Origin: Alphaproteobacteria bacterium
GTDB lineage: Bacteria > Pseudomonadota > Alphaproteobacteria > CAAHEQ01 > UBA3637
Assembly: GCA_017647405.1 (NCBI GenBank)
Contig: JAGCKR010000064.1
Span: forward strand, 9,988 to 73,987
Length of the DNA: 64,000 bases
Reading direction: 5' to 3'
This document shows positions 9,772 to 21,665 of the stretch, one piece after another (within the stretch, counting starts at the first letter, position 1; each line of letters opens with the position of its first letter). Both the position numbers and the translations under genes were made by a program. A model generated the notes under the pieces. It made no database searches and was not told the DNA's origin. It saw only the letters and a program-made list of their open reading frames with translations.

Positions 9772-12546
9772 ATGACGTTTTTAAAAAAAGCATATTTGCG
9801 CGCTTCTGATATTCCAGGTTTTCATTTTGGGGAACTTGTTTGTTTAATGCTTCTTTCCTTTTTTATGGGAATGGCTCTGTCGGGATATGATGCGGCTTCT
9901 GTTCGTCTTTATTTTGAACATGTGCCTTTGCCGGTTATGGGATATGATTTTATTTATATTGCCTTTCTCTGGTTTTTTATTGGGTATCAAAGAAGTATTT
10001 TAACAAGGCAAAAAGGATATGGTGCTATCAAAATTTTAAGTGCCGTTGTGTTTTTAAATACGCTTGTTTTGATTGGAATGGAAACATTGAATCAAAATCT
10101 TTTTGCCCATGTGTTATTTGTCAGTAAGTACCTAGTTTTTTCTTTTTTTACAATGGCGCTTTTTTTAATTGTTTCGAGGTTTTTGCCATTCAGACGTGAA
10201 AGTTTAAAACGACTTTTTATTATGGGTGCTTTATTTTTGGGATTTATGTTTGGTGGATTTATCCCGTTGATTTTTAAATGGGGCGCGTACAGCGTTTTAT
10301 ATGTTTCATTTTTTTTGTTGCTCGGATGTTATTTTAGCTTATTTATTCTTTCAAAAATAGTTTCTGTTCCTAAGGAGCTTTTTGTTACTAAAACAGGCGC
10401 CGCCAAAAATCTTTCGGAACTTAAATTAGTTCGAACGGTTTTATTGGGTTCCTTTTTTGTTTTTGCTGTTAAATGTTTATCTGATTTTCTTTTTTACCAA
10501 TCAGTAGCCAAAGAATTTGAACTTATTGAAACATGGCAATATTTACTCAGTTGGTGGGGTTTATTAGGATTTTTTGGTATTTTATGTGTTGTTATTTTAT
10601 ATCGCACTCGTTATTTTTATATGATTACGGGGGGGATAGTATTATTTTTGATAGGTGCTTTTTGCATTTCTCTGGGCAGTTTATATCAGTTTGTTTATTT
10701 AACAATTATTGGAATGATTTTAAGTTCATTAGCCCTGTTTCTTTATTTTGAAGATTTTATATTGGCATTACTTCGGTTATTGAATCAGGGGATTGGGCAA
10801 AATATTAATAGAAAAAGATGGATGTTAATTGAGCCGGCCGGTTTTTTGGCGGGGGCGCTTTTAAGTGTTCATTTTGCAAATCAGGCATGGATTTTGTTTT
10901 ATCTAACAGCCGGATTGCTTGTTTTGTTTTTTTTATCACTTAAGTTTTACTCTTCTTTATTGGTTTCATTATTGTCATTAAGAGTATGGCGCGGTGGTCC
11001 GTTGTTGTTATTGGATGGTCCTGTTTTGGATTACATTCAAAAAAATATTGTTTCAGAAAATAAAAATGATGCCATTTATTTTTTAAGAATTTTGGAAGTT
11101 TCCAATAGATGGATTTATACAGTTTGGCTTTTAAAATCACTTAAAAATAAAAATGAAAAAGTGCGTCTGTATGTTTTGGAAAAAATGTCTGCGCTATATA
11201 ATTTATCGCGTTATGAAAAAACAATTGAACTTATTTTTTTAAGAGACGCCTCTTTAAAAGTCAGATGTCGAGCTTTAAGTCTTTTAATCCAAATTGCATA
11301 TGAAAATAAAGGGTTAAATGGAGTTAATGCGTATTTGCCATATTTGGATAATAAAAAATTAAAAGTAGGTGCAATGTGTGGTTTTTTAAAAACAGGTGGA
11401 GCACCGGCTTTATTGGTGGCTGATGGATTGCAAGAACTTGTTAACTCCAAAAAGATTAAAGATAATTTATTAGCTCTTGCAATTATTGATTGGGCCCCAA
11501 GTGTTGGGTTGATGCGACAATTAACCAGATTGATGAAAAGTACAACGCCGATTGTTGCTTCAAAATCTTTATTGGTTGCGGCTAAGATTGATCATCCGGA
11601 ATGTTTGCCTCTTATTTTGAATTCTTTGGATGATATGGCTTTAAGAGAAAATGCTCTTGTTGCGCTTAAAAGTTATGGTGTAAAAGCATTGCCGATGATT
11701 GAGCGTGCTTTAAACAATCCGGAAACACCGGCAATTCGTTTAAAAACATTAATTTTGTTTTTGAGTATGCTTCCAAGTGGGGAAGGTAAACAAGTTTTAT
11801 TGCGTTCTCTTCAAATTGGAAATCAAAAATTAAGAAAAACAATTATTCAAGGGATGATTGATAGCGGTATTTTTTGGACTCATCATGATAAATATGATTT
11901 GCTATTTAATGGGATTCAAAAAGATGTTAATCGGATTTTATGGTTGACTGAATTAATGTTAAAATATAAGCAAGTTTCATTTCCGCAAACAAGTGAAGTA
12001 TTTTCATTTTTAATCAGAGCAATTCAAGAAGACCTTAAAGAAACAAGAGAAACGATTTTATATCAACTGTTATTATTAAAAGATAACCAGCTTTATATTA
12101 AAGCTGTAAAATTATTGCTTTCTAAAAGAAAAGATGCCTATGATTTGGCAATGAGTTCATTACAGGATATGTTGCCAAGAAAATTATTTCGGTTGGTTAA
12201 AATTGCGTTGGTTGATACAACGAAAACGGAAAAATCAGTTATCCAATCAGATATCACAATTGAAAGTGCAACAAAAGATGTTTTGCTTTTATTGAACGAA
12301 CCGCCGTTTATGCTTCCTGATTGGATAAAAGCAACGGCGCTTTATGTTTTAAGAATGCTTGATTGTCCTTTGGCCTTAGAAACAGTTAAAAAATATTTAA
12401 AATCAAAAAATCCACTTGTTTTAGAAGCAGCAATTTGGGCATTTTGCAAATTAGAAAAAGATGAAGAAAAACGGCACCAAACATTGATTGGATTGCCAAC
12501 AAGTCAGCTTCTTTTACAATCATTGGATACGATTTTGGAAAGTTAG
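9772..12546 (+). CDS. 12-TM transporter-like domain fused to a C-terminal HEAT/ARM-repeat domain
   Basis: About 12 hydrophobic helices within aa 1-400. The remaining ~500 aa contain repeated HEAT-like units (NEKVRLYVLEKM, DASLKVRCRALSLL, NPETPAIRLKTL, NPLVLEAAIWAF). Confidence 0.6.
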   Translation: MTFLKKAYLRASDIPGFHFGELVCLMLLSFFMGMALSGYDAASVRLYFEHVPLPVMGYDFIYIAFLWFFIGYQRSILTRQKGYGAIKILSAVVFLNTLVLIGMETLNQNLFAHVLFVSKYLVFSFFTMALFLIVSRFLPFRRESLKRLFIMGALFLGFMFGGFIPLIFKWGAYSVLYVSFFLLLGCYFSLFILSKIVSVPKELFVTKTGAAKNLSELKLVRTVLLGSFFVFAVKCLSDFLFYQSVAKEFELIETWQYLLSWWGLLGFFGILCVVILYRTRYFYMITGGIVLFLIGAFCISLGSLYQFVYLTIIGMILSSLALFLYFEDFILALLRLLNQGIGQNINRKRWMLIEPAGFLAGALLSVHFANQAWILFYLTAGLLVLFFLSLKFYSSLLVSLLSLRVWRGGPLLLLDGPVLDYIQKNIVSENKNDAIYFLRILEVSNRWIYTVWLLKSLKNKNEKVRLYVLEKMSALYNLSRYEKTIELIFLRDASLKVRCRALSLLIQIAYENKGLNGVNAYLPYLDNKKLKVGAMCGFLKTGGAPALLVADGLQELVNSKKIKDNLLALAIIDWAPSVGLMRQLTRLMKSTTPIVASKSLLVAAKIDHPECLPLILNSLDDMALRENALVALKSYGVKALPMIERALNNPETPAIRLKTLILFLSMLPSGEGKQVLLRSLQIGNQKLRKTIIQGMIDSGIFWTHHDKYDLLFNGIQKDVNRILWLTELMLKYKQVSFPQTSEVFSFLIRAIQEDLKETRETILYQLLLLKDNQLYIKAVKLLLSKRKDAYDLAMSSLQDMLPRKLFRLVKIALVDTTKTEKSVIQSDITIESATKDVLLLLNEPPFMLPDWIKATALYVLRMLDCPLALETVKKYLKSKNPLVLEAAIWAFCKLEKDEEKRHQTLIGLPTSQLLLQSLDTILES

Positions 12547-12555
12547 GAGAAAAGT

Positions 12556-12957
12556 ATGTCGATTACATTTGAAAAAGTTTTGGTATTAAAAAATATTCCA
12601 ATGTTTGAAAGTGCATCTGAAATGGCTTTGTCAGATTTAATTGCCGCTTCGGAAGAAAAAACATATAAAGCTGGTGATGTGATTATTGATAACGAAAAAG
12701 AAAATTCGTTTTTGTTTATTGTGTTGTTTGGTAAAGCGGGTATTGTTCAAGATGGCGAAATAGTGCAAGAATTTGCTCCGCGTCAAATTTTTGGTGAAAC
12801 AACGGTTTTAAGTCCGGCTATTTTGCCTCATCCGATTAAAGCGATTGAAAAAACAATTGTTTTGAAAATTAGTGGTCACCGGTTATATCAAGTAATGTCA
12901 CTTCATCCATCTGTTGCAAAAGGATTTATCGGTGAACTTTCAAAACGGCTTCGTTAA
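12556..12957 (+). CDS. Stand-alone cyclic-nucleotide-binding (cNMP) domain protein
   Basis: 133 aa with a beta-roll-like GDVII...FLFIVLFG...IFGETTVL pattern. GGAG RBS sits 9 nt after the stop of the upstream HEAT gene. Confidence 0.55.
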   Translation: MSITFEKVLVLKNIPMFESASEMALSDLIAASEEKTYKAGDVIIDNEKENSFLFIVLFGKAGIVQDGEIVQEFAPRQIFGETTVLSPAILPHPIKAIEKTIVLKISGHRLYQVMSLHPSVAKGFIGELSKRLR

Positions 12958-13056: not shown

Positions 13057-14226
13057 ATGGTTAAAAAAACTAAAGAAGAAGCCGTTCAAACAGACGGTAC
13101 GGTTAAAACATCATGCAAGAAAGACTGCTGCAAATGCTCTTGTTTGTCAAAATTGAAAACAGGAACAGTTTTAGTTGGCGGTTTTGCTGTTATTGTTGCA
13201 ACAATTTGGGCAATGGCTGAAAATAAATGGATTCAAATTCCTTCATTTTCATCATTTACATCAAAAACAGGCACCGTTGTTGCTACTGTTGATGGTGATC
13301 CTGTTTACATGTCCGATGTGAAAGACTTGGTTGCTCAAATTCCACAATTATCCGAGTTGCCATTTGAAGCTATCTATCCGCAATTAGTTAAGGATGTTGT
13401 TTCAGAAAAAGTTCTTAAAAAAGCGGTTAAGGGTTCTAATGTTGAAAAAAATCCGATTGTTCAACAACGTGTGAATGCCATTTTGTTTGAAGCTTATTTA
13501 GTTGAAAAATTCAAAAAAATGGTTTCTGACGAAGAATTAAAACAAATCTATTTGGAAGAAATCAAAAATTTCCCACGTCAAGAAGAAGTACGTGCCCGTC
13601 ATATTTTGGTTAAATCAGAAAAAGAAGCCAAAGATATCTTGGTACAATTAAAAGCCGGCGCTGACTTTAAGATTTTGGCCAATAAAAAATCTTTGGATGC
13701 TGGAAGCAATAATGGCGGTGATTTAGGATACTTCAAAAAAGAAATGATGATTCCTGCCTTTACAGAACCTGTTTTTGCTTTAAAGAAAGGACAATTATCA
13801 GCTCCGATTAAAACATCATTTGGTTGGCATATTGTGTTGGTTGAAGATCGCCGTTTAGCCGCTCCACCTTCATTTGAAGAAACAAAAGATTTCTTGCGTA
13901 AACAATTGTTTGCTCAAAAAGTGCCAGAATTGATTGAAGATGAATTAAAACGTTTTAAAGCTGAAATTAAAGTTCCGTCAATTGAAACTAAACCGGCCGA
14001 AACCGAAGAAGAAGTAGCTGATATGGCTTTGGAACAAGAAGTTTTACCAGAAGAAACTGAAACGGCTGAACCAGTTGTTGAAAACACAACACCTGTTGTT
14101 GAAGCACCAACAGAAATGCCGGCAGAAGCTCCGGCTGTAACCCCTGTTGAAACACCAGCAGAAGCAACAGTTCCGACAGCAGAAACAACTCCGGTTGAAA
14201 CACCAGTTGTTACAGAAAACAAATAA
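13057..14226 (+). CDS. Membrane-anchored parvulin-type peptidyl-prolyl isomerase (PpiC/SurA-like)
   Basis: Parvulin core ARHILVKSEKEAKDIL...GGDLGYF...SFGWHIVLVEDRR. N-terminal TM and a C-terminal E/T/P/V/A-rich repeat tail. Confidence 0.8.
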   Translation: MVKKTKEEAVQTDGTVKTSCKKDCCKCSCLSKLKTGTVLVGGFAVIVATIWAMAENKWIQIPSFSSFTSKTGTVVATVDGDPVYMSDVKDLVAQIPQLSELPFEAIYPQLVKDVVSEKVLKKAVKGSNVEKNPIVQQRVNAILFEAYLVEKFKKMVSDEELKQIYLEEIKNFPRQEEVRARHILVKSEKEAKDILVQLKAGADFKILANKKSLDAGSNNGGDLGYFKKEMMIPAFTEPVFALKKGQLSAPIKTSFGWHIVLVEDRRLAAPPSFEETKDFLRKQLFAQKVPELIEDELKRFKAEIKVPSIETKPAETEEEVADMALEQEVLPEETETAEPVVENTTPVVEAPTEMPAEAPAVTPVETPAEATVPTAETTPVETPVVTENK

Positions 14227-14245
14227 TTTTCTGAAATAGTAAAAA

Positions 14246-14272
14246 AGGGCGCTTTTAAGCGCTCTTTTTTTT
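14246..14272 (+). terminator. Rho-independent terminator after the parvulin gene
   Basis: GGGCGCTT-tt-AAGCGCTC hairpin followed by a T9 run. Confidence 0.8.
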
Positions 14273-14343
14273 GTTGAAAAATTGATTGATTTGGTATAAA
14301 AATCAAATGATTATTTTTTTTATTTAAGAGTCGGAAATTTAAT

Positions 14344-14366
14344 GGTCGTTAGATTTGCCGGATTTT
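14344..14366. repeat. Repeat copy 1: GGTCG-TTAGATTT-GCCGGATTTT
   Basis: The left 13 nt are the perfect reverse complement of 14453-14465. The right 17/18 nt are a direct repeat of 14467-14483. Confidence 0.85.
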
Positions 14367-14423
14367 GACAAAATAGCCAAAAAAGTTAATCATATGATTT
14401 TATGTAAATTTTTTATAAATAAG

Positions 14424-14452
14424 TTGAAAAGTTTTACCTACTATGGTATAAG
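14424..14452 (+). promoter_or_regulatory. Putative sigma70-type promoter facing the glycan cluster
   Basis: TTGAAA (14424-14429), 17-nt spacer, TATAAG (14447-14452). It lies between the inverted repeats, about 50 nt upstream of ATG 14502. Confidence 0.45.
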
Positions 14453-14483
14453 AAATCTAACGACCCTTAGATTTGCCGATTTT
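14453..14483. repeat. Repeat copies 2 and 3: palindrome AAATCTAA-CGACCC-TTAGATTT followed by GCCGATTTT
   Basis: Read directly from the sequence. Copy 2 is inverted relative to copy 1 and copy 3 is direct. Confidence 0.85.
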
Positions 14484-14501
14484 TATTTTAAAGAAGAAAA
14501 A

Positions 14502-15077
14502 ATGACAATAGCTTATATAGATAAAAATAGTTTATTTATCAGTAAATTAGAGCAAAAAAAATTGCTCTTGTCGTTTTTGAATGTAAAAAAAATAACGGAT
14601 GTTAATTTTATTGAAAATGAGAATATTTTTGCCGATATTTCATTTTTTTCAAAATATAAAAGATTAATTATTCCATCATTATTATTGTTGGGAAAAGATT
14701 TGGATGAAGTGCAACGTCATCTTTCCATCTTGAGTCAATATGAAATGGAACTTATCTCTTTGAAAGAAAATTTAATTTTTTCAACAAAGGATGAAATAAA
14801 AAATTTCATTAAGGAATTCGAAATGATTCTTCAAATGAAAAAAGCATATTCATCTGTGAAAATTAAAAAAGCTCTTCAACAAAAGAAAGAACGAGGATTA
14901 AAAATTGGTCGATCATTTGGAGCAAAAAATAAGAAAAAAACGAAATGCGAAGAGAATCATGACTATATTATCAACGCATTAAAAAAAGGGGAAAATATGT
15001 TGACAATTGCAAATGCAATCGGCGTTAGTATCCGAACGCTTTTTAATTATAAGAAAATTATATTGTCAGGGAAATAA
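14502..15077 (+). CDS. Serine-recombinase (resolvase/invertase)-like protein lacking catalytic residues; probable DNA-binding regulator
   Basis: Collinear by eye with small resolvases, including an E-helix/arm (KKALQQKKERGLKIGRSFG) and a C-terminal HTH (ENMLTIANAIGVSIRTLFNY). YxRVS is replaced by YIDKNS and DRLGR by LLLGK. The track start at 14355 (TTG) is rejected in favour of ATG 14502. Confidence 0.6.
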   Translation: MTIAYIDKNSLFISKLEQKKLLLSFLNVKKITDVNFIENENIFADISFFSKYKRLIIPSLLLLGKDLDEVQRHLSILSQYEMELISLKENLIFSTKDEIKNFIKEFEMILQMKKAYSSVKIKKALQQKKERGLKIGRSFGAKNKKKTKCEENHDYIINALKKGENMLTIANAIGVSIRTLFNYKKIILSGK

Positions 15078-15103
15078 CAAATTAAGAAATAAGGAATTGA
15101 AAA

Positions 15104-15535
15104 ATGAAAACATATTATATTGTTTCGGGAGGATTTGATCCTATACATGAGGGACATATCGAAATGATAAAATCATCAGCGAAGGCTTCTGATGGGGTGA
15201 TTATTTTGGCAAATTCTGATGAATGGCTTATCAGAAAGAAAGGTAAGAATTTTTATCAAATGAAAACGCGTTTGGCCATTTTGGAAAATTTAAAAGGCGT
15301 TGTGGATGTGATTGAATTTGATGATAGTGACGATTCTGCTTCAGATGGTATCAGAAAAGCGCGTGCTAAATATCCGAATGAGAAGCTTGTTTTTGCAAAT
15401 GGTGGTGATCGTGGCAAAGATAATATCCGTGAAGATGCTGTTTGTGAAGAATTAAATGTTGAAAAAGTTTTTGGTGTTGGTGGAGATAATAAAGCCAATT
15501 CGTCATCATGGATTTTAAATAAGTGGGGAAAATAA
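15104..15535 (+). CDS. Cytidylyltransferase-superfamily nucleotidyltransferase (HxGH)
   Basis: GGFDPIHEGHIEM (HxGH motif), FANGGDR and GVGGDNKANSSS. Small (143 aa) sugar- or polyol-phosphate nucleotidyltransferase type. Confidence 0.7.
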   Translation: MKTYYIVSGGFDPIHEGHIEMIKSSAKASDGVIILANSDEWLIRKKGKNFYQMKTRLAILENLKGVVDVIEFDDSDDSASDGIRKARAKYPNEKLVFANGGDRGKDNIREDAVCEELNVEKVFGVGGDNKANSSSWILNKWGK

Positions 15536-15536
15536 A

Positions 15537-16730
15537 ATGAAAAAGAAACTTTTATTCGATGTGGAGCAATTGGCTGCTGATGGTTTAAAAGGAACAGGAG
15601 TTGTTCGTGTTTGTGATGAACTTTTGCGTCGTTTGGTCGCGAATGATGAAGTTGATGTTTATCCGGTTATTGTTTCTGGGCGAGGAGATTTTGAAGCCTA
15701 TTTAAAAGCCAAGGGATTATATAAAAAATTAAAGAACAAAATTGTTTATATGCCGAAGCTTAAATCAACAACAAAAAATTTGAATATTTTTCAAAAAATC
15801 AATTCTTATTGTTTAATCAAATTTTGTTCTTATAAATATAAAAATATTTTGGCTCAATATGATGCTTATATATCGATGTTTACGCCGATTTCACCGGTTG
15901 TTTATCAAAGTAAATTGAAAACGTATATGATTATTCATGATTTGATTCCGATTATGTATCCGGATGGGTGTTCATCTAAATTTATTAAAAAGTTTACGGA
16001 TTGGATGCAAAGAGCAAATGCTGATGAATATTTTGCTGTTTCGAATTTCACTAAGGATGATTTTTTGAAATATCGGCCAGATGAAAAGAATAAACCGATA
16101 CATACGCTTTATTTGGGTGCCAGTAAAAATTTTTCGCCGGTTAAGGATAAAAAAGTTATTCAAAAAGTCAAAGAAAAATATGGTATTAAAACAGATAAAT
16201 ATTTTTTGGCAGTATCAGAACTTTCAGCTCGCAAAAACTTTGTTCATTTACTTAAAAGTTTTGTTGCCTTTTTGGATGAAACAAAAGCGGATGATATTTC
16301 GCTTGTTTTGGTTGGACCTGTTCGCAAAGGGTATGATGCTGTCACATCTCAAGTGATGGGATTTGAAAAATATAAGGATAAAATTGTTCAAACCGGTTTT
16401 GCAGATAATGAAGATTTGGCTCCGCTTTATAGTGGGTCAACAAGTTTTATCTATCCAAGTTGTTATGAAGGTTTCGGATTGCCTGTTTTGGAAGGAATGC
16501 AATGTGGGGCGCCGGTGATAACGGCGGATAACACCTCTTTACCAGAAGTGGGAGGGGATGCTGTTTTATATATTACAGGGCGTGATGAAAAAGAAACCGT
16601 GAAAGCCCTTCAAAAGATATACGAAGATGAAAATTTAAGAAAAGAATTATCTAAAAAAGGAATTGAACGTGCTCAAAAATTCAATTGGGAATCTGCTGTT
16701 CAAGTGGTTGAAAATGCTGTGAGAGGGTAA
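15537..16730 (+). CDS. Glycosyltransferase family 4 (GT-B, RfaG-like)
   Basis: C-terminal EGFGLPVLEGMQCGAPVITADNTSLPEVGGDA (E-x7-E region). Confidence 0.8.
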   Translation: MKKKLLFDVEQLAADGLKGTGVVRVCDELLRRLVANDEVDVYPVIVSGRGDFEAYLKAKGLYKKLKNKIVYMPKLKSTTKNLNIFQKINSYCLIKFCSYKYKNILAQYDAYISMFTPISPVVYQSKLKTYMIIHDLIPIMYPDGCSSKFIKKFTDWMQRANADEYFAVSNFTKDDFLKYRPDEKNKPIHTLYLGASKNFSPVKDKKVIQKVKEKYGIKTDKYFLAVSELSARKNFVHLLKSFVAFLDETKADDISLVLVGPVRKGYDAVTSQVMGFEKYKDKIVQTGFADNEDLAPLYSGSTSFIYPSCYEGFGLPVLEGMQCGAPVITADNTSLPEVGGDAVLYITGRDEKETVKALQKIYEDENLRKELSKKGIERAQKFNWESAVQVVENAVRG

Positions 16731-16733
16731 AAG

Positions 16734-17720
16734 ATGCCAAAAATATCCGTTATAATGCCTGTTTATAACACGAAAGAAATTTATCTAAGACCGGCGATAG
16801 AATCTGTTTTAAATCAAACATATACAGATTTTGAATTGATTATCATTGATAATGGGTCGAAAAAAGAAACTGTTCAAATTTTAGAACAATATAAGGATAA
16901 TCGAATAAAATTATATCGTTTAGAAGAAAATTTGGGACCAGCCGGGGCAAGAAATTTGGGTATAGAAAATGCAAAAGGTGAATTTATTGCGTTTAATGAT
17001 TCTGACGATATTTCATCTTTGAATCGATTTGAAAAACAAATAGAGTTTTTTGAAAAAAATAAAGATATCGGTTGTTTGGGAACGGCTTCAAAGCATATTT
17101 ATAATGGCGTTGAAAAAATTCAGGTAAATCAATTGAAAAGTTCTGATGAAATTGAATGTTTTTTAATTTTTAACGGATGTGCATTCACGAATTCAACAGT
17201 TATGTTAAGAAAAGAAGTTTTAGATAAATATAACTTGAGATATGCATTAGATGATGTTCCAGCCGAAGATTATAAAATGTGGATTAATTTAATTGGAAAA
17301 ACAAAATTCCATATTATGGATGATGTATTGCTCACCTATAATTTTTATCCGGAAAATATTTCTTCTTTAAGACATAGTGAGCAAGAAGAAAAAACAATTT
17401 TATTTAAACAACAGTGTCTTTTACCTTTTTTGAAAGAAAAGGATGCTCAATTATTTGTTCATATTTTAAGTGGTAAACCGCATACATTTGAACAATTAAA
17501 GGAATTTTCTGTAAAATTTCCATTTTATATGGATGTCTTTTCTAAAAGATATTCAACTGAATTATTTAAGAAGTTTTTAAAGAAAAAAATCAAAAAAATA
17601 TTTTATAAAACGCACTCCCTTAAAGGTCAGTTATTTTTGTTTAGATCGTCGTTTGGGCAAATTTTTAATTTTTCTTTAAGTTGGCGTTTATGGTGTTTGA
17701 TAACGAAAGGAGTTTTATAA
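16734..17720 (+). CDS. Glycosyltransferase family 2
   Basis: ISVIMPVYNTKEIYLRPAIESVLNQTYTDFELIIIDNGS and the NDSDD (DxD) motif. Confidence 0.8.
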   Translation: MPKISVIMPVYNTKEIYLRPAIESVLNQTYTDFELIIIDNGSKKETVQILEQYKDNRIKLYRLEENLGPAGARNLGIENAKGEFIAFNDSDDISSLNRFEKQIEFFEKNKDIGCLGTASKHIYNGVEKIQVNQLKSSDEIECFLIFNGCAFTNSTVMLRKEVLDKYNLRYALDDVPAEDYKMWINLIGKTKFHIMDDVLLTYNFYPENISSLRHSEQEEKTILFKQQCLLPFLKEKDAQLFVHILSGKPHTFEQLKEFSVKFPFYMDVFSKRYSTELFKKFLKKKIKKIFYKTHSLKGQLFLFRSSFGQIFNFSLSWRLWCLITKGVL

Positions 17721-17830
17721 ATGAATTTAGTTGTCAACGCGGTTAAGTAATCTGAAATTTTAGGATAAACGGCCATTGTTCGTGATGATAAACTTATTTG
17801 ATTTTGGTTGTTTCTGAAAGGAAGAATATA

Positions 17831-20155
17831 ATGCCCAAAATATCAATTATTGTTCCGGTTTATAATGTTGAACAATATTTGCCAAAATGTTTGGATAGTT
17901 TAATTAACCAAACCTTAAAAGATATTGAAATTATCTGCGTCAATGATGGGTCAACGGATGGGTCTTTATCTGTTTTAAAAGATTATGCTCAAAAAGATAA
18001 ACGTATTCGGATTATTGATAAAGAAAATTCAGGTCCTGGGGCTTGCCGAAATATGGGGATTGAAAAAGCAACTGGTGAATTTATTCAATTTGTTGATTCG
18101 GATGATTGGATTGAACCTGAAACTTGCGAAGTTTGTTATCAAAAAGCCAAAGAACATAATGTTGATATGGTCAGCTTTAATGCCTTATTCCATAAAAAAG
18201 AGAAATCTAATCCATATATTTATTATAATATAAATGAGGAAAAAATAATCACATGGCAAGATATTTCCAGAGTTCTTTTTCAGAGCCATTTTAATGTTTG
18301 GCACTATATATTTAAAAAATCATTATTAGATAAACATCTAATTCGTTTTCCAAATATTGTGATGGGAGAAGATGTTCCTTTTACTCTAAATGCGTGGCTA
18401 TCAGTTAAAGGGGTTTATATTATACCTAAGCTGTTTTACCATTATGACGATAGTAGAGAGACTTCAATTTGTCGTTCATATCACAATAAAGTAGATACTT
18501 TTTCATTTTTAGAAATGAGTCGGAATATGATTAGTCCTTTTCAATCTAAAAGTTTAAATGAAAGTTTTTCTATGTTTAAATTAGTAAAGTTATTCTATGA
18601 ATATAGAAAAGAAATTGATGTTGTTGAACAAAAAAAATTCAAAAAATTTGTAAAAAAAATCTGTACAGAATCAGAATACAAGAAATTTATTTCGGCATGT
18701 GGTTATCAAAGGTATTTGTTTGGAAGAATTCCACTATTTGAAGCTAATAAGAAAAAAAATAAAACAATATATAAAGTTTTAGGGATTAATTTTTTAAGTA
18801 TATTAAAAAAAACAAAAAGATCACAGCGAACAGATAAAAAAGATTATAAAAAAACTTATAAATTATTGGGGGTTCCCTTTTTTAAAATTAAGAAAAAATA
18901 TAATTTTTATGGGTATAAAAAGTTTGTTTATTTTTGTGGGATTTGTGTTTATAAAAAATCAAAAGATAAATTAAATAAAAAAATTGCATCATTTAACAAA
19001 AAATATCAAAAAACACTTAAAAGATTAAAAATAAAAGTTCTAAATAAAGAGAAAATTAGAGTTGCTTTTTATGTAAATGATTCAAAGTTTAAAACACAAA
19101 AACTTTTTAATTTAATGAAAAAAAACAAATATTATCATCCATTTGTTTTGGTTGGTAAAAATTCTGTGCAGGAGAATAGTGCGGAATATCAAACGCAAGA
19201 AGAAGTTCAAAAAATTTTTGATTATTTTAAAAAAAATAAAATGGAAGTTTATTTTGCTTATGATTTTGAATCTAATAAACCGATCCCATTAAAAACGTTT
19301 AAACCTGATATTATTTTTTATTCGCGCCAATATGCATTAGCAAAAGAGCATAAAATAGATGTTATTGCAGATTATTCTTTGCCAGTATATGTTCCATACT
19401 TTGTTCCGAACTCTCCCTTGGCTGTGGAGGCAGGAAGTGAGTTTCATAACCTGTTATGGAAATATTTTATTTTAAATGCTGAAACAAAAGCAAATTATAG
19501 TCCTGTTATGCAAAATAAGGGGGAAAATTTGGTTGTGACGGGACATCCCATATTAGATGTTTATCTTGAACAGATGAAAAAACAAGAGAAGTACGTTATT
19601 TATGCACCACATTGGAGTGTTGGGGATACTTTATTGAATTATTCAACATTTGAATGGAGTGGAAAATTTATGCTCGAATGGGCGCAACAGCATCCTGAAT
19701 TTAAGTGGGTTTTTAAGCCCCATCCAATGTTATATAATCGTTTAATCACTTCTGGATATATGACTAAAGAAGAAGTTGAGAAATATTATTCTGAATGGGA
19801 AAAAATAGGGATATATTATTCTGGTCCTGATTATTTTGATTATTTTAAAAATTCAAAAGCATTGATTACCGATTGTGGGTCTTTTATTGCCGAATATTTG
19901 CCGACTGAAAAGCCGGTGATTTTAATGAGATCGTCTAGAGCGACACCTTATAATTTTTTGGGGAAAATAATATCAAACTCTTACTATAATATTCATAATT
20001 CGGATGAATTAACCGAGTGTTTAGAAAAAGTTTTAGTGCTTAAAAATGATGATAAAAAATCAAAGCGAATTCAGACGTTAACAAATTTAAATTTAATACA
20101 AAATGCATCCAATAATATTATTAAAGTTTTAAATCGGGAGTTGGGAATAAAATGA
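17831..20155 (+). CDS. Bifunctional GT2 glycosyltransferase / CDP-glycerol glycerophosphotransferase (TagF/TagB-like)
   Basis: N-terminal ISIIVPVYNVEQYLPKCLDSLINQT...VDSDD. The C-terminal domain has YAPHWS, KPHP and LITDCGSFIAEYLPTEKPVIL, which resemble the Glyphos_transf motifs YAPTWR and LITDYSS. ATG 17831 has a GGAAG RBS. Confidence 0.75.
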   Translation: MPKISIIVPVYNVEQYLPKCLDSLINQTLKDIEIICVNDGSTDGSLSVLKDYAQKDKRIRIIDKENSGPGACRNMGIEKATGEFIQFVDSDDWIEPETCEVCYQKAKEHNVDMVSFNALFHKKEKSNPYIYYNINEEKIITWQDISRVLFQSHFNVWHYIFKKSLLDKHLIRFPNIVMGEDVPFTLNAWLSVKGVYIIPKLFYHYDDSRETSICRSYHNKVDTFSFLEMSRNMISPFQSKSLNESFSMFKLVKLFYEYRKEIDVVEQKKFKKFVKKICTESEYKKFISACGYQRYLFGRIPLFEANKKKNKTIYKVLGINFLSILKKTKRSQRTDKKDYKKTYKLLGVPFFKIKKKYNFYGYKKFVYFCGICVYKKSKDKLNKKIASFNKKYQKTLKRLKIKVLNKEKIRVAFYVNDSKFKTQKLFNLMKKNKYYHPFVLVGKNSVQENSAEYQTQEEVQKIFDYFKKNKMEVYFAYDFESNKPIPLKTFKPDIIFYSRQYALAKEHKIDVIADYSLPVYVPYFVPNSPLAVEAGSEFHNLLWKYFILNAETKANYSPVMQNKGENLVVTGHPILDVYLEQMKKQEKYVIYAPHWSVGDTLLNYSTFEWSGKFMLEWAQQHPEFKWVFKPHPMLYNRLITSGYMTKEEVEKYYSEWEKIGIYYSGPDYFDYFKNSKALITDCGSFIAEYLPTEKPVILMRSSRATPYNFLGKIISNSYYNIHNSDELTECLEKVLVLKNDDKKSKRIQTLTNLNLIQNASNNIIKVLNRELGIK

Positions 20156-20544
20156 AACGAGTAATTACATATGGAACTTTTGATGTGTTGCATTATGGAC
20201 ACATTAATTTACTGAAAAGAGCCAAAGCTTTGGGTGATTATTTGATTGTTGTTCTTTCAAGTGATGAGTTTAATAAACAAAAAAATAAGCAATCATTTTA
20301 TACTTATGAACAACGCAAAATGATATTGGAAGCTTGCAGATATGTTGATTTAGTTATTCCTGAATATAATTGGGAGCAAAAAGTTGAAGATGTGAAAAAA
20401 TATCAAGCTGATGTCTTCGTGATGGGTGATGATTGGAAAGGTCAATTTGATTTTTTAAAAGATTATTGCGAAGTTGTTTATTTGCCAAGAACCCCAGATG
20501 TTTGCTCGACGAATACCAAAAAACATTTGAAAGAGAAAGGGTAA
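20152..20544 (+). CDS. tagD: Glycerol-3-phosphate cytidylyltransferase
   Basis: MKRVITYGTFDVLHYGHINLLKRAKALGDYLIV is a near-canonical TagD/TarD N-terminus. 130 aa. Its ATG overlaps the upstream TGA stop. Confidence 0.85.
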   Translation: MKRVITYGTFDVLHYGHINLLKRAKALGDYLIVVLSSDEFNKQKNKQSFYTYEQRKMILEACRYVDLVIPEYNWEQKVEDVKKYQADVFVMGDDWKGQFDFLKDYCEVVYLPRTPDVCSTNTKKHLKEKG

Positions 20545-20552
20545 TAAAAACA

Positions 20553-21665
20553 ATGAATCCAATAACACCTGTTTTTGAAAAAAATAATATTGCGATTTGT
20601 TTTTCTACAGATAATAATTTTGTTCCATATTTAGCTGTTGTTATGCAATCATTGGTACATAATATTTCACAGTTTAATAACTATGATATTGTAATTTTAG
20701 AAGAGAATTTAACAGATTTTCATAAAAAAGACTTTTTTAAGTATTCAAGAGAAAATGTTTCCATTAGATTTATAAATATGACTTCATATATGGAATCTTA
20801 TAAAGATGTATGGTATATTCATAATTGGGGTAAAAAATGGCACTCTTTAAGTGTTTATTATCGATTTTTTATTCCTGAAATATTTAAAGAGTATCAAAAG
20901 GTTGTTTTTTTGGATGGGGATATCATTATTAATATTGATATTGCTGAATTATACAATGTTGATTTAAAAGAAAATTTAGTTGGTGCAGTTCAGGATTTTG
21001 CAAGAAATATCAAAAATGACGCTATAGCAGAATATTCTGAAAAAGTTTTGGATGTTGATAGAAAAAAATATTTTAATGCAGGGGTTCTTGTTTTTAATTT
21101 GAAAAAATTAACAAAAATAAAATTTTTGGATAATTGTATTAAAACACTCCAAGAAATTGGTCGCCCTAAATTACAAGATCAAGATATTTTAAATATTGTT
21201 TTAAAAGATCAAGTCTTATATTTAAATAACGCATATAATTGTTTGTTTTGGTCCATTTTACACGGACGGAGCAATGCTAAAGAACTACTAGACTCAGAAC
21301 TTTATAGTTTATGGGAGGAAATGGCAAAAAATCCAAAAATATTCCATTATGCAGGCTCTAGAAAACCTTGGAGTGAACCTAATTTAGAATATGCAACTTA
21401 CTTTTGGTCATATGCTCGTCAAACCCCATTTTATGAAGAGATTTTGGGTAGAATGATTGATTTTAAAATTTCTCAACGACAGAATCAAAATATTTTTCAA
21501 AACTATCCGAGTATGTTTTTTTTGAATGCTAAAAAAATCATTTATAAAATTAAAAAGTTATTTTCAAAGGGTGAAAAAAGAAAAAAATATAAAATGAAAT
21601 ATAAAAAAGTTAAATCGATTATAAAAGAAGCTAAGAAGTTTAAAAAAAATCTTTTTAAAATTTAA
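20553..21665 (+). CDS. Glycosyltransferase family 8 (LgtC/RfaJ-like)
   Basis: FSTDNNFVPYLAVVMQSL, VVFLDGDIII, YFNAGVLVFN, QDQDILN and HYAGSRKPW motifs. Lys-rich amphipathic C-terminal tail. ATG 20553 replaces the track start at 20466. Confidence 0.75.
   Translation: MNPITPVFEKNNIAICFSTDNNFVPYLAVVMQSLVHNISQFNNYDIVILEENLTDFHKKDFFKYSRENVSIRFINMTSYMESYKDVWYIHNWGKKWHSLSVYYRFFIPEIFKEYQKVVFLDGDIIINIDIAELYNVDLKENLVGAVQDFARNIKNDAIAEYSEKVLDVDRKKYFNAGVLVFNLKKLTKIKFLDNCIKTLQEIGRPKLQDQDILNIVLKDQVLYLNNAYNCLFWSILHGRSNAKELLDSELYSLWEEMAKNPKIFHYAGSRKPWSEPNLEYATYFWSYARQTPFYEEILGRMIDFKISQRQNQNIFQNYPSMFFLNAKKIIYKIKKLFSKGEKRKKYKMKYKKVKSIIKEAKKFKKNLFKI

Follow-up and report, generated by a model that had tools for sequence, protein, structure and literature searches.

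What does a recombinase-like gene that has lost its catalytic residues do at the head of a surface-glycan operon? Promoter inversion is a textbook route of surface variation in gut bacteria, and it is usually described as one enzyme and two repeats. The gene considered here lies at 14502-15077 on the forward strand of a 64,000-nt stretch of contig JAGCKR010000064.1 (the window), which comes from an uncultured gut alphaproteobacterium. A first reading made from the letters and their translations (the sequence-only reading) had described it as a domesticated serine-recombinase homologue behind a repeat-bracketed promoter. We found that the segment ahead of the gene (14344-14465) is a working inverton, which inverts in nature. 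The gene belongs to a previously unnamed clade of non-catalytic Mpi paralogues, for which we define the name 'pseudo-Mpi' here; pseudo-Mpi is not a decaying gene and is under purifying selection. As the repeats ahead of it form the crossover sites at which this inverton flips, pseudo-Mpi appears to be a component of a phase-variation switch, and its role in this surface-sugar on/off switch is probably that of a helper or regulator that does not cut DNA.

Homology and fold of the encoded protein

Is the gene product a serine recombinase by descent? The open reading frame (ORF) is intact, starts with ATG and encodes 191 aa. We take 14502 to be the true start because all orthologues begin MTIA(Y/L)I; longer callings of 227 and 240 aa initiate within the invertible segment and are not conserved, the 227-aa version being gene-caller output on identical public contigs. 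The gene and its domains are as follows.

14502..15077 (+): non-catalytic Mpi-family serine-recombinase paralogue ('pseudo-Mpi'), 191 aa, assigned from hidden Markov models (HMMs), BLASTP, an AlphaFold2 (AF2) model, the dN/dS ratio of non-synonymous to synonymous change and a tree
Domains of the protein: degenerate catalytic domain, residues 1-95; E-helix, 96-130; arm, 131-146; helix-turn-helix (HTH), 148-188

A resolvase-family HMM match had been proposed as a check of the homology. With the Pfam Resolvase profile (PF00239), the score of 16.7 bits (E 0.0078, residues 53-132) lies below the cut-off of 23.3; the NCBIfam profile NF009949 ('master DNA invertase Mpi family') did match, with E 2.5e-11 and 43.6 bits over residues 53-185. 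The equivalog cut-off of that profile, 272 bits, was not reached, indicating a homologue and not an equivalog. A profile built from the orthologue family matched Sin/Bin3 2r0q with E 1.8e-5, and BLASTP aligned the protein to P0196, an active Mpi-type invertase of a relative, with E 6e-13 (28% identity over 131 aa). In plasmid and phage collections we found only distant active recombinases, at ~28% identity.

The predicted structure points the same way. An AF2 model made from an 11-sequence alignment (mean predicted local distance difference test score, pLDDT, 81) has the order b1-aA-b2-aB-b3-aD-b4-b5, followed by a long E-helix (96-130), a disordered arm and a three-helix HTH; in the model, the mixed beta-sheet N-domain, long E-helix, arm and C-terminal HTH of the resolvase fold are thus all present. 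The best matches in the PDB by Foldseek were all serine recombinases aligned over their full length, namely Sin (2r0q), gamma-delta resolvase (1gdt, 2gm4 and 1zr2, the comparison that the sequence-only reading had asked for) and Tn3 resolvase (5cy1), with E-values from 4.7e-8 to 5e-5; the top match was the Sin regulatory complex 2r0q. Profile matches and modelled fold together indicate that the product is a true but remote homologue of small serine recombinases, as had been supposed.

Loss of the active site

Could the protein still cut DNA? We read the catalytic positions from alignments to active relatives, and none of the catalytic Ser and Arg residues is retained. YIRVST of the active enzymes is YIDKNS in the window protein: the Arg has become Asp and the Ser nucleophile Asn, so that the first of the two replacements noticed earlier (YxRVS(T) to YIDKNS) was seen correctly. 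The Ser that follows this Asn is not conserved, and is Asn in most orthologues. The second replacement, DRLGR to LLLGK with the loss of both arginines, is likewise confirmed, as E(V/L)SRLGR of the active enzymes aligns with SLLLLGK and the arginines of (D/S)RLGR are gone. The earlier hand alignment of this block, of the arm and of the HTH agrees with the HMM alignments. In addition, the 10-residue catalytic loop 'ETISGTKDFE' is deleted, and in the E-helix AEIERNLISQR is replaced by LQMKKAYSSVK, with loss of the Glu and Arg residues (EIER..R to QMKK..K).

An alternative nucleophile was sought across the N-terminal domain of the clade, and no Ser, Thr, Tyr or Cys is conserved there except Tyr5. 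All active-site positions are missing in every member of the inactive clade. By these alignments, the window protein lacks the nucleophile and the arginines that define an active serine recombinase and scores below the curated thresholds, which classes it as a non-catalytic paralogue. This argues that the inversion of the segment is performed by another enzyme, since the window protein has lost its active site.

Age and conservation of the inactive clade

Is the loss recent, as expected for a gene in decay, or old? An exhaustive profile search gave 570 relatives. Among 118 relatives of normal length, all four scored catalytic positions were kept in 39 and not in 79. In the maximum-likelihood tree, the window protein falls into nested groups of 11, 18, 37 and 53 representatives (53 being a count of cluster representatives) that consist of inactive proteins only, with support values in the Shimodaira-Hasegawa-like approximate likelihood-ratio test (SH-aLRT) of 100, 100, 99 and 97, respectively. 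The inactive clade diverges down to ~25% identity. Because the groups are nested, well supported and all inactive, the catalytic loss is an old one, after which the inactive protein was retained and diversified. Pairwise Nei-Gojobori dN/dS values are 0.17-0.34, and the closest pair (L001 and L002) shows synonymous differences only (pS 0.052, pN 0).

The pattern of conservation is also informative. Across 22 diverse members, S118 of the E-helix (also present in active enzymes) and R137 of the Gly-Arg in the arm are invariant, and G132, G136, G140 and N143 are nearly so. The mean identity among the inactive proteins is 40% in the arm and HTH versus 25% in the N-terminal domain. In active Mpi enzymes the order is the opposite, with 75% in the catalytic domain, 91% in the E-helix and 54% in the arm and HTH. 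The recognition helix retains the pattern of active Mpi, GVS.RT(L/I)(F/Y)N(Y/F). Thus the earlier picture of a homologue that has lost its active site and keeps its DNA-binding arm and HTH holds up, with the arm and HTH as the best-conserved part.

Pseudo-Mpi proteins can be recognized by a length of ~190-200 aa, an N-terminus of the (G/A)Y(L/I)D..KNI type in place of YxRVST, a motif of the N(I/V)xCLG type in place of ELSRLGR, and a conserved K(L/I)GR..G.KN arm with the HTH; the window protein has these hallmarks. The active family comprises about 8000 clusters at 77-98% identity to P0196, several of which NCBI labels as Mpi-family invertases of metagenome-assembled genomes (MAGs) of Alphaproteobacteria.

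The invertible promoter segment

We asked what the repeats upstream of the gene are. The sequence-only reading was right that repeats bracket a promoter here; they are not just a set of operators, however, as they are the crossover sites of an inverton whose segment is found in both orientations in public metagenomes of the window species.

14330..14361 (no strand): left crossover site, quasi-palindrome GTCGGAAATTTAA - TGGTCG - TTAGATTTGCCGG, from the sequence and the inverted repeat, with joints at 14342-14357
14344..14465 (no strand): invertible promoter segment of 122 bp with a perfect 13-bp inverted repeat, GGTCGTTAGATTT / AAATCTAACGACC, from metagenome joints
14365..14393 (+): promoter-like P1 within the segment, TTGACA-17-AATCAT, a consensus match only
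14424..14452 (+): promoter P2 facing the gene, TTGAAA-17-TATAAG with TGG ahead of the -10, predicted from the sequence
14453..14479 (no strand): right crossover site AAATCTAA - CGACCC - TTAGATTTGCCGA, from the sequence and the inverted repeat

In each site, two inverted half-sites of ~13 bp flank an asymmetric centre, and the left and right sites are mutually inverted; such a layout with two half-sites is typical of the crossover sites of serine invertases. The best full copy of the quasi-palindromic site is TCGGCAAATCTAA-GGGTCG-TTAGATTTGCCGA, and AAYGGTCGTTAGATTT is the crossover-site sequence of the window inverton. The right site starts directly after the -10 of P2 and so covers the expected transcription start. 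In the 64-kb window the half-site TTAGATTTGCCG has no third copy besides the two at the inverton, looser matches being at chance level, and no accessory sites are visible besides the two crossover sites.

To determine the orientation of the segment, we compared contigs of public ruminant-gut metagenomes with the window and read it from the joints at which a contig switches to the opposite strand; the flanks of these contigs are 97-100% identical to the window. The window itself carries the ON orientation, which was also present in runs X1, X2, X4 and X12. The flipped orientation, with both junctions on one contig, was present in X5 (2704 nt), X6 (2367 nt), X7 and X11. Run X3 was mixed: its assembly graph is broken exactly at both repeats, and a 47-nt unitig (depth 2.9 versus 8.6) agrees in its length, its two mismatches and its 8 loose letters with the prediction for a right-hand junction that has flipped. 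Contigs L009-L012 were left out as independent evidence for ON because they had been retrieved through the 227-aa ORF, which is present only in that orientation.

Genome assemblies of relatives are predominantly OFF (L001-L007 and L018). The inner segments of L001, L008 and L018 align to the window segment only when flipped, and they carry a TTG(C/T)AA-17-TATA(G/A)(A/G) promoter at the same distance from the repeat that faces away from the gene.

A search of genome contigs for the two-site pattern returned L002 and L008 again, together with one spurious match in L013 (5024-5153). The latter, a long hairpin without relation to the window segment, precedes a phosphotransferase system (PTS) EIIBCA gene of a Jutongia (Firmicutes) MAG and probably serves as a leader or antiterminator structure, not as an inverton of this family. 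Scans of a metagenome-contig collection returned no match. A second copy of the site in X2, on a 73-nt unitig, was first taken as a second inverton of this genome and is not counted; its depth ratio to the window contig (0.31 in X1 versus 0.89 in X2) argues against the same genome, and its flank resembles the start of the pseudo-Mpi gene of another species.

Copies of the left-site sequence (14329-14366) with 1-3 mismatches were seen on many short unitigs with other flanks in X1, X3-X7 and X9-X11, and their summed depth reached about 110 versus 6-8 for the window contig. Some of these unitigs run into a small hairpin and then ...AAAATGGG, like the start of the inactive gene of the L018 type. 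The site family is therefore common to several co-occurring relatives or loci.

Conserved context in related loci

Does the pairing of an inactive gene with an inverton extend beyond this genome? We compared nine distinct loci (the window, L001, L005, L018, L019, L016/17, L020, L021 and L023) and, in addition, L008. The proteins of L001 and L005 are 53% identical to the window protein; those of L018, L019, L016/17, L020, L021 and L023 are about 25-36% identical, and they span the 53-member clade. In all nine loci a glycan-synthesis operon starts with the inactive gene; across the loci, these operons contain GT2, GT4, GT8, TagF, Stealth, Glf, Rml or NeuB-type genes. Immediately upstream of the inactive gene there is, each time, a segment bounded by inverted repeats whose arms are 93-119 bp apart. 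L008 shows the same arrangement, which may be an artefact there. In four loci (L016/17, L020, L021 and L023), an intact active Mpi-type invertase of 196-198 aa with YxRVST and E(V/I)SRLGR is encoded beyond the segment, on the side away from the inactive gene. The repeat of L021, TTTAACGGTCGTTAAA, and that of the window, AATGGTCGTTAG, have a common core, AACGGTCGTT.

In L008 (1-350; L014 is on this contig too), the start of the inactive gene (…IAYIDKYNKYINMLEQKNILLEFL) stands on both sides of the segment as part of a perfect inverted repeat of 126 nt. A 'toggle' between two divergent operons was considered for this locus and set aside, as the left arm stops exactly at the contig end and may be an assembler artefact of the inverton.

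The glycan genes behind the switch can differ between close relatives. L001 (10001-13669) and L005 (10001-13393) have the same species-level flanks, with a phosphoenolpyruvate carboxykinase (PEPCK) gene upstream, an identical inverton and inactive genes that are 89% identical, and the glycan genes that follow are wholly different (GT1/TagF/TagD in L001 versus Stealth/GT2 in L005). The differences between the two inactive genes lie, apparently, mainly in the 3' part. The comparison suggests that cassettes were exchanged and that the breakpoint lies within the inactive gene or close to it. A like swap is found behind identical active Mpi genes in L024 and L025.

Two further features of these loci were noted. 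In L016 (1-7020), L023 (1-5054) and L024-L029 (1-3840), the Mpi gene and inverton come directly after a tail-like block (DUF1833, NlpC/P60, GpJ-like) and small ORFs, with an HU gene also present in L016 and L023; the block looks like the terminal part of a tail cluster from an alphaproteobacterial gene-transfer agent or prophage. In L020 (5133-5285), the inactive gene is followed by an HTH-only ORF of 66 aa that is 42% identical to the HTH of active Mpi, and in L023 (6596-7615) by a gene for a 339-aa protein with many faint HTH-family matches. Both add to the recombinase-derived DNA-binding pieces of these operons.

Possible roles of pseudo-Mpi in the switch

How could an invertase paralogue that does not cut act on an invertible switch? 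Pseudo-Mpi would be made only in the ON state, because no promoter for it is recognisable outside the invertible segment. Its dimer would bind the palindromic crossover sites of its own inverton through the minor-groove arm, with the invariant Gly-Arg, and the HTH. The active Mpi-type invertase of this genome would have to be encoded elsewhere, and pseudo-Mpi, because it cannot cleave, would compete with this enzyme or form dead-end synapses with it. Such interference would alter the rate of ON-to-OFF inversion, a lock on ON being the favoured outcome. Pseudo-Mpi bound at the right-hand site would also damp its own promoter, as this site covers the transcription start. Judged from sequence and context, the whole model, in which pseudo-Mpi is a site-binding modulator of its own glycan switch, stands at an even balance for us.

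A narrower form of the model can be put forward tentatively: pseudo-Mpi may be a natural dominant-negative subunit that is made only in ON and sits at the crossover sites or in the Mpi synaptic tetramer, so that the ON state resists flipping back and acquires a memory, and that belongs to an old clade co-diversified with the glycan loci of uncultured gut Alphaproteobacteria.

Several observations weigh against the modulator model. No active recombinase is encoded in the window, nor within 10 kb in loci of the window type. Many modules of Mpi, inverton and glycan operon, including those of an abundant relative, have no inactive paralogue, and the inactive gene is therefore an optional add-on and not a core part. 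In the small comparison that four loci with both proteins allow (n=4 loci only), we saw no sign that the two DNA-binding domains follow each other, those of cognate inactive and active proteins being no more alike than those of non-cognate pairs. The mixed state of X3 consists of one junction unitig, that is, one of the two flipped junctions, and could reflect two strains. Moreover, binding, expression and an effect on the inversion rate are inferred from anatomy and context, and the direction of the effect, lock or accelerator, is a guess.

Alternatively, pseudo-Mpi could be a plain transcription factor that regulates its own or other glycan loci, for example by cross-repression such that one glycan is made, as with UpxZ, with no effect on inversion. 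This would fit with the retained arm and HTH, with the overlap of the right-hand site and the expected transcription start, and with the first position in the operon, where Bacteroides carries upxY/upxZ; gamma-delta and Tn3 resolvase itself represses at res, and in L020 (HTH-only) and L023 (339 aa) extra genes come directly after the inactive gene. What makes this explanation doubtful to us, while still a serious one, is the absence of the half-site elsewhere in the 64-kb window: the crossover sites are the only candidate binding sites, and regulation there is hard to separate from an effect on recombination.

A less probable explanation, which we consider unlikely, is that pseudo-Mpi stimulates the switch in the manner of FimE. 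The ON-specific inactive paralogue would then aid the assembly of the active invertase as an architectural or accessory subunit (cf. res sites II/III), would speed ON-to-OFF inversion and would make ON transient. Orientation-dependent expression of a switch factor is the mode of fimE, the top structural match is the regulatory, non-catalytic DNA complex of Sin, and the assemblies of relatives are mostly OFF. On the other hand, the accessory sites that such a subunit would use are not seen, the species of the window is ON in about half of the samples, and an inactive subunit at a crossover site is expected to block cleavage and not to help it.

The remaining two explanations are very improbable. 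A functionless, decaying relic of a once-adjacent invertase gene would account for the loss of all catalytic residues and for Pfam and NCBIfam scores under their cut-offs, but not for an intact reading frame in an AT-rich genome, for dN/dS values of 0.2-0.3 with zero non-synonymous changes in the closest pairs, or for a 53-member clade that keeps arm, HTH and operon position down to about 25% identity. Equally improbable is that the protein still catalyses the inversion of this segment, by means of an unconventional nucleophile: no other recombinase-like gene lies beside this demonstrably flipping switch or elsewhere in the window, but no Ser, Thr, Tyr or Cys of the N-terminal domain other than Tyr5 is conserved in the clade, the catalytic loop is deleted, the phosphate-positioning Arg residues are all replaced, the enzyme would be absent in the OFF state, and relatives retain a canonical active Mpi beside the same kind of switch.

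Comparison with known systems

We compared the modulator model and its parts with systems that are already described. The closest is Mpi (multiple promoter invertase) of Bacteroides fragilis, which flips capsular-polysaccharide promoters on segments of roughly 170-190 bp. The best HMM (NF009949) places the window protein in the same family, the promoter segments are likewise short, flanked by inverted repeats with an ACG-containing core and located ahead of surface-glycan operons, and 'master DNA invertase Mpi family' is the NCBI name for the active relatives in these gut Alphaproteobacteria. The window protein differs in having no active site and in its gene lying inside the switched operon, downstream of the promoter, whereas the Mpi gene lies elsewhere; the segment is shorter (122 bp), and the host is an uncultured gut alphaproteobacterium.

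DNA binding without catalysis by a protein of the same fold is known from the accessory-site subunits of Tn3, gamma-delta and Sin and from resolvase acting as a repressor at res, and the regulatory complex of Sin (2r0q) is the best match of the window protein in both sequence and structure. In those systems one active protein fills both roles, whereas here the product is separate and permanently inactive. Catalytic-serine mutants of Hin, Gin and resolvase made in the laboratory (e.g. S10A) bind and synapse, cannot cleave and are dominant negative, which is the behaviour proposed for pseudo-Mpi; they are engineered point mutants, whereas the loss here is natural, covers at least 7 active-site positions and the loop, and has long been kept.

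With FimE/FimB of the E. coli fim switch, pseudo-Mpi would have in common that a switch-modulating protein of a recombinase family is made according to the orientation of the element. However, FimE is an active tyrosine recombinase and the window protein an inactive serine-recombinase homologue. UpxY and UpxZ of the Bacteroides capsule operons are also encoded by the first genes behind an invertible glycan promoter, hence ON-only, but they have unrelated folds (a NusG-like antiterminator and its inhibitor) and act on transcription and not on DNA sites.

A full-text literature search found no published description of inactive Mpi or invertase paralogues, an absence that is not proof of novelty. 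If the model is true, inversion switches would have a new control element in a conserved inactive copy of the invertase whose production is confined to the ON state. Such a copy would add a protein-level feedback layer to phase variation by DNA inversion and would give bacteria a clear case of a recombinase-derived pseudo-enzyme. Pseudo-Mpi could then serve as a natural 'lock' part in synthetic recombinase circuits. The loci also extend Mpi-type glycan phase variation from Bacteroidales to uncultured Alphaproteobacteria of the ruminant and human gut.

Neighbouring genes and other features

What would the switch control, and what limits it? Downstream, 27 bp separate pseudo-Mpi from six co-directional glycan genes, whose Pfam families agree with the order given in the sequence-only reading, and beyond the end of the cluster lies a convergent bamE. 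Upstream, a PpiC-type rotamase gene ends at 14226 and is followed by a hairpin that would terminate transcripts from the flipped (OFF) promoter.

14241..14270 (no strand): bidirectional terminator hairpin 3' of the PpiC-type rotamase gene, AAAAAAGGGCGCTT/AAGCGCTCTTTTTT
15104..21665 (+): six-gene surface-glycan operon downstream of pseudo-Mpi, from ORFs and from Pfam families on the identical contigs L009-L012
15104-15535 (+): CTP-transferase-like, gene 1 of the operon
15537-16730 (+): GT4, gene 2
16734-17720 (+): GT2, gene 3
17798-20155 (+): GT2/TagF-like, 785 aa, gene 4
20152-20544 (+): second CTP-transferase-like, gene 5
about 20553-21665 (+): GT8, gene 6

A search with Rfam over 13900-15300 gave nothing above threshold, and among RNA runs none was found to contain the locus. 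Another terminator-like hairpin, at 15021-15040, was rejected, because coding conservation of the HTH explains it and the structure itself is not conserved.

The rotamase (13057-14226) has a low-complexity C-terminal tail in which Glu, Thr, Pro, Ala and Val are abundant and near-repeats such as ETPAEA and TPVETPV occur, and a long antisense ORF at 13914-14306 is probably a by-product of the composition of this tail. Just upstream of the rotamase gene, the region 9772-12957 encodes a polytopic membrane protein of 924 aa whose C-terminal half carries HEAT repeats, followed by a 133-aa protein with a cyclic nucleotide monophosphate (cNMP)-binding domain.

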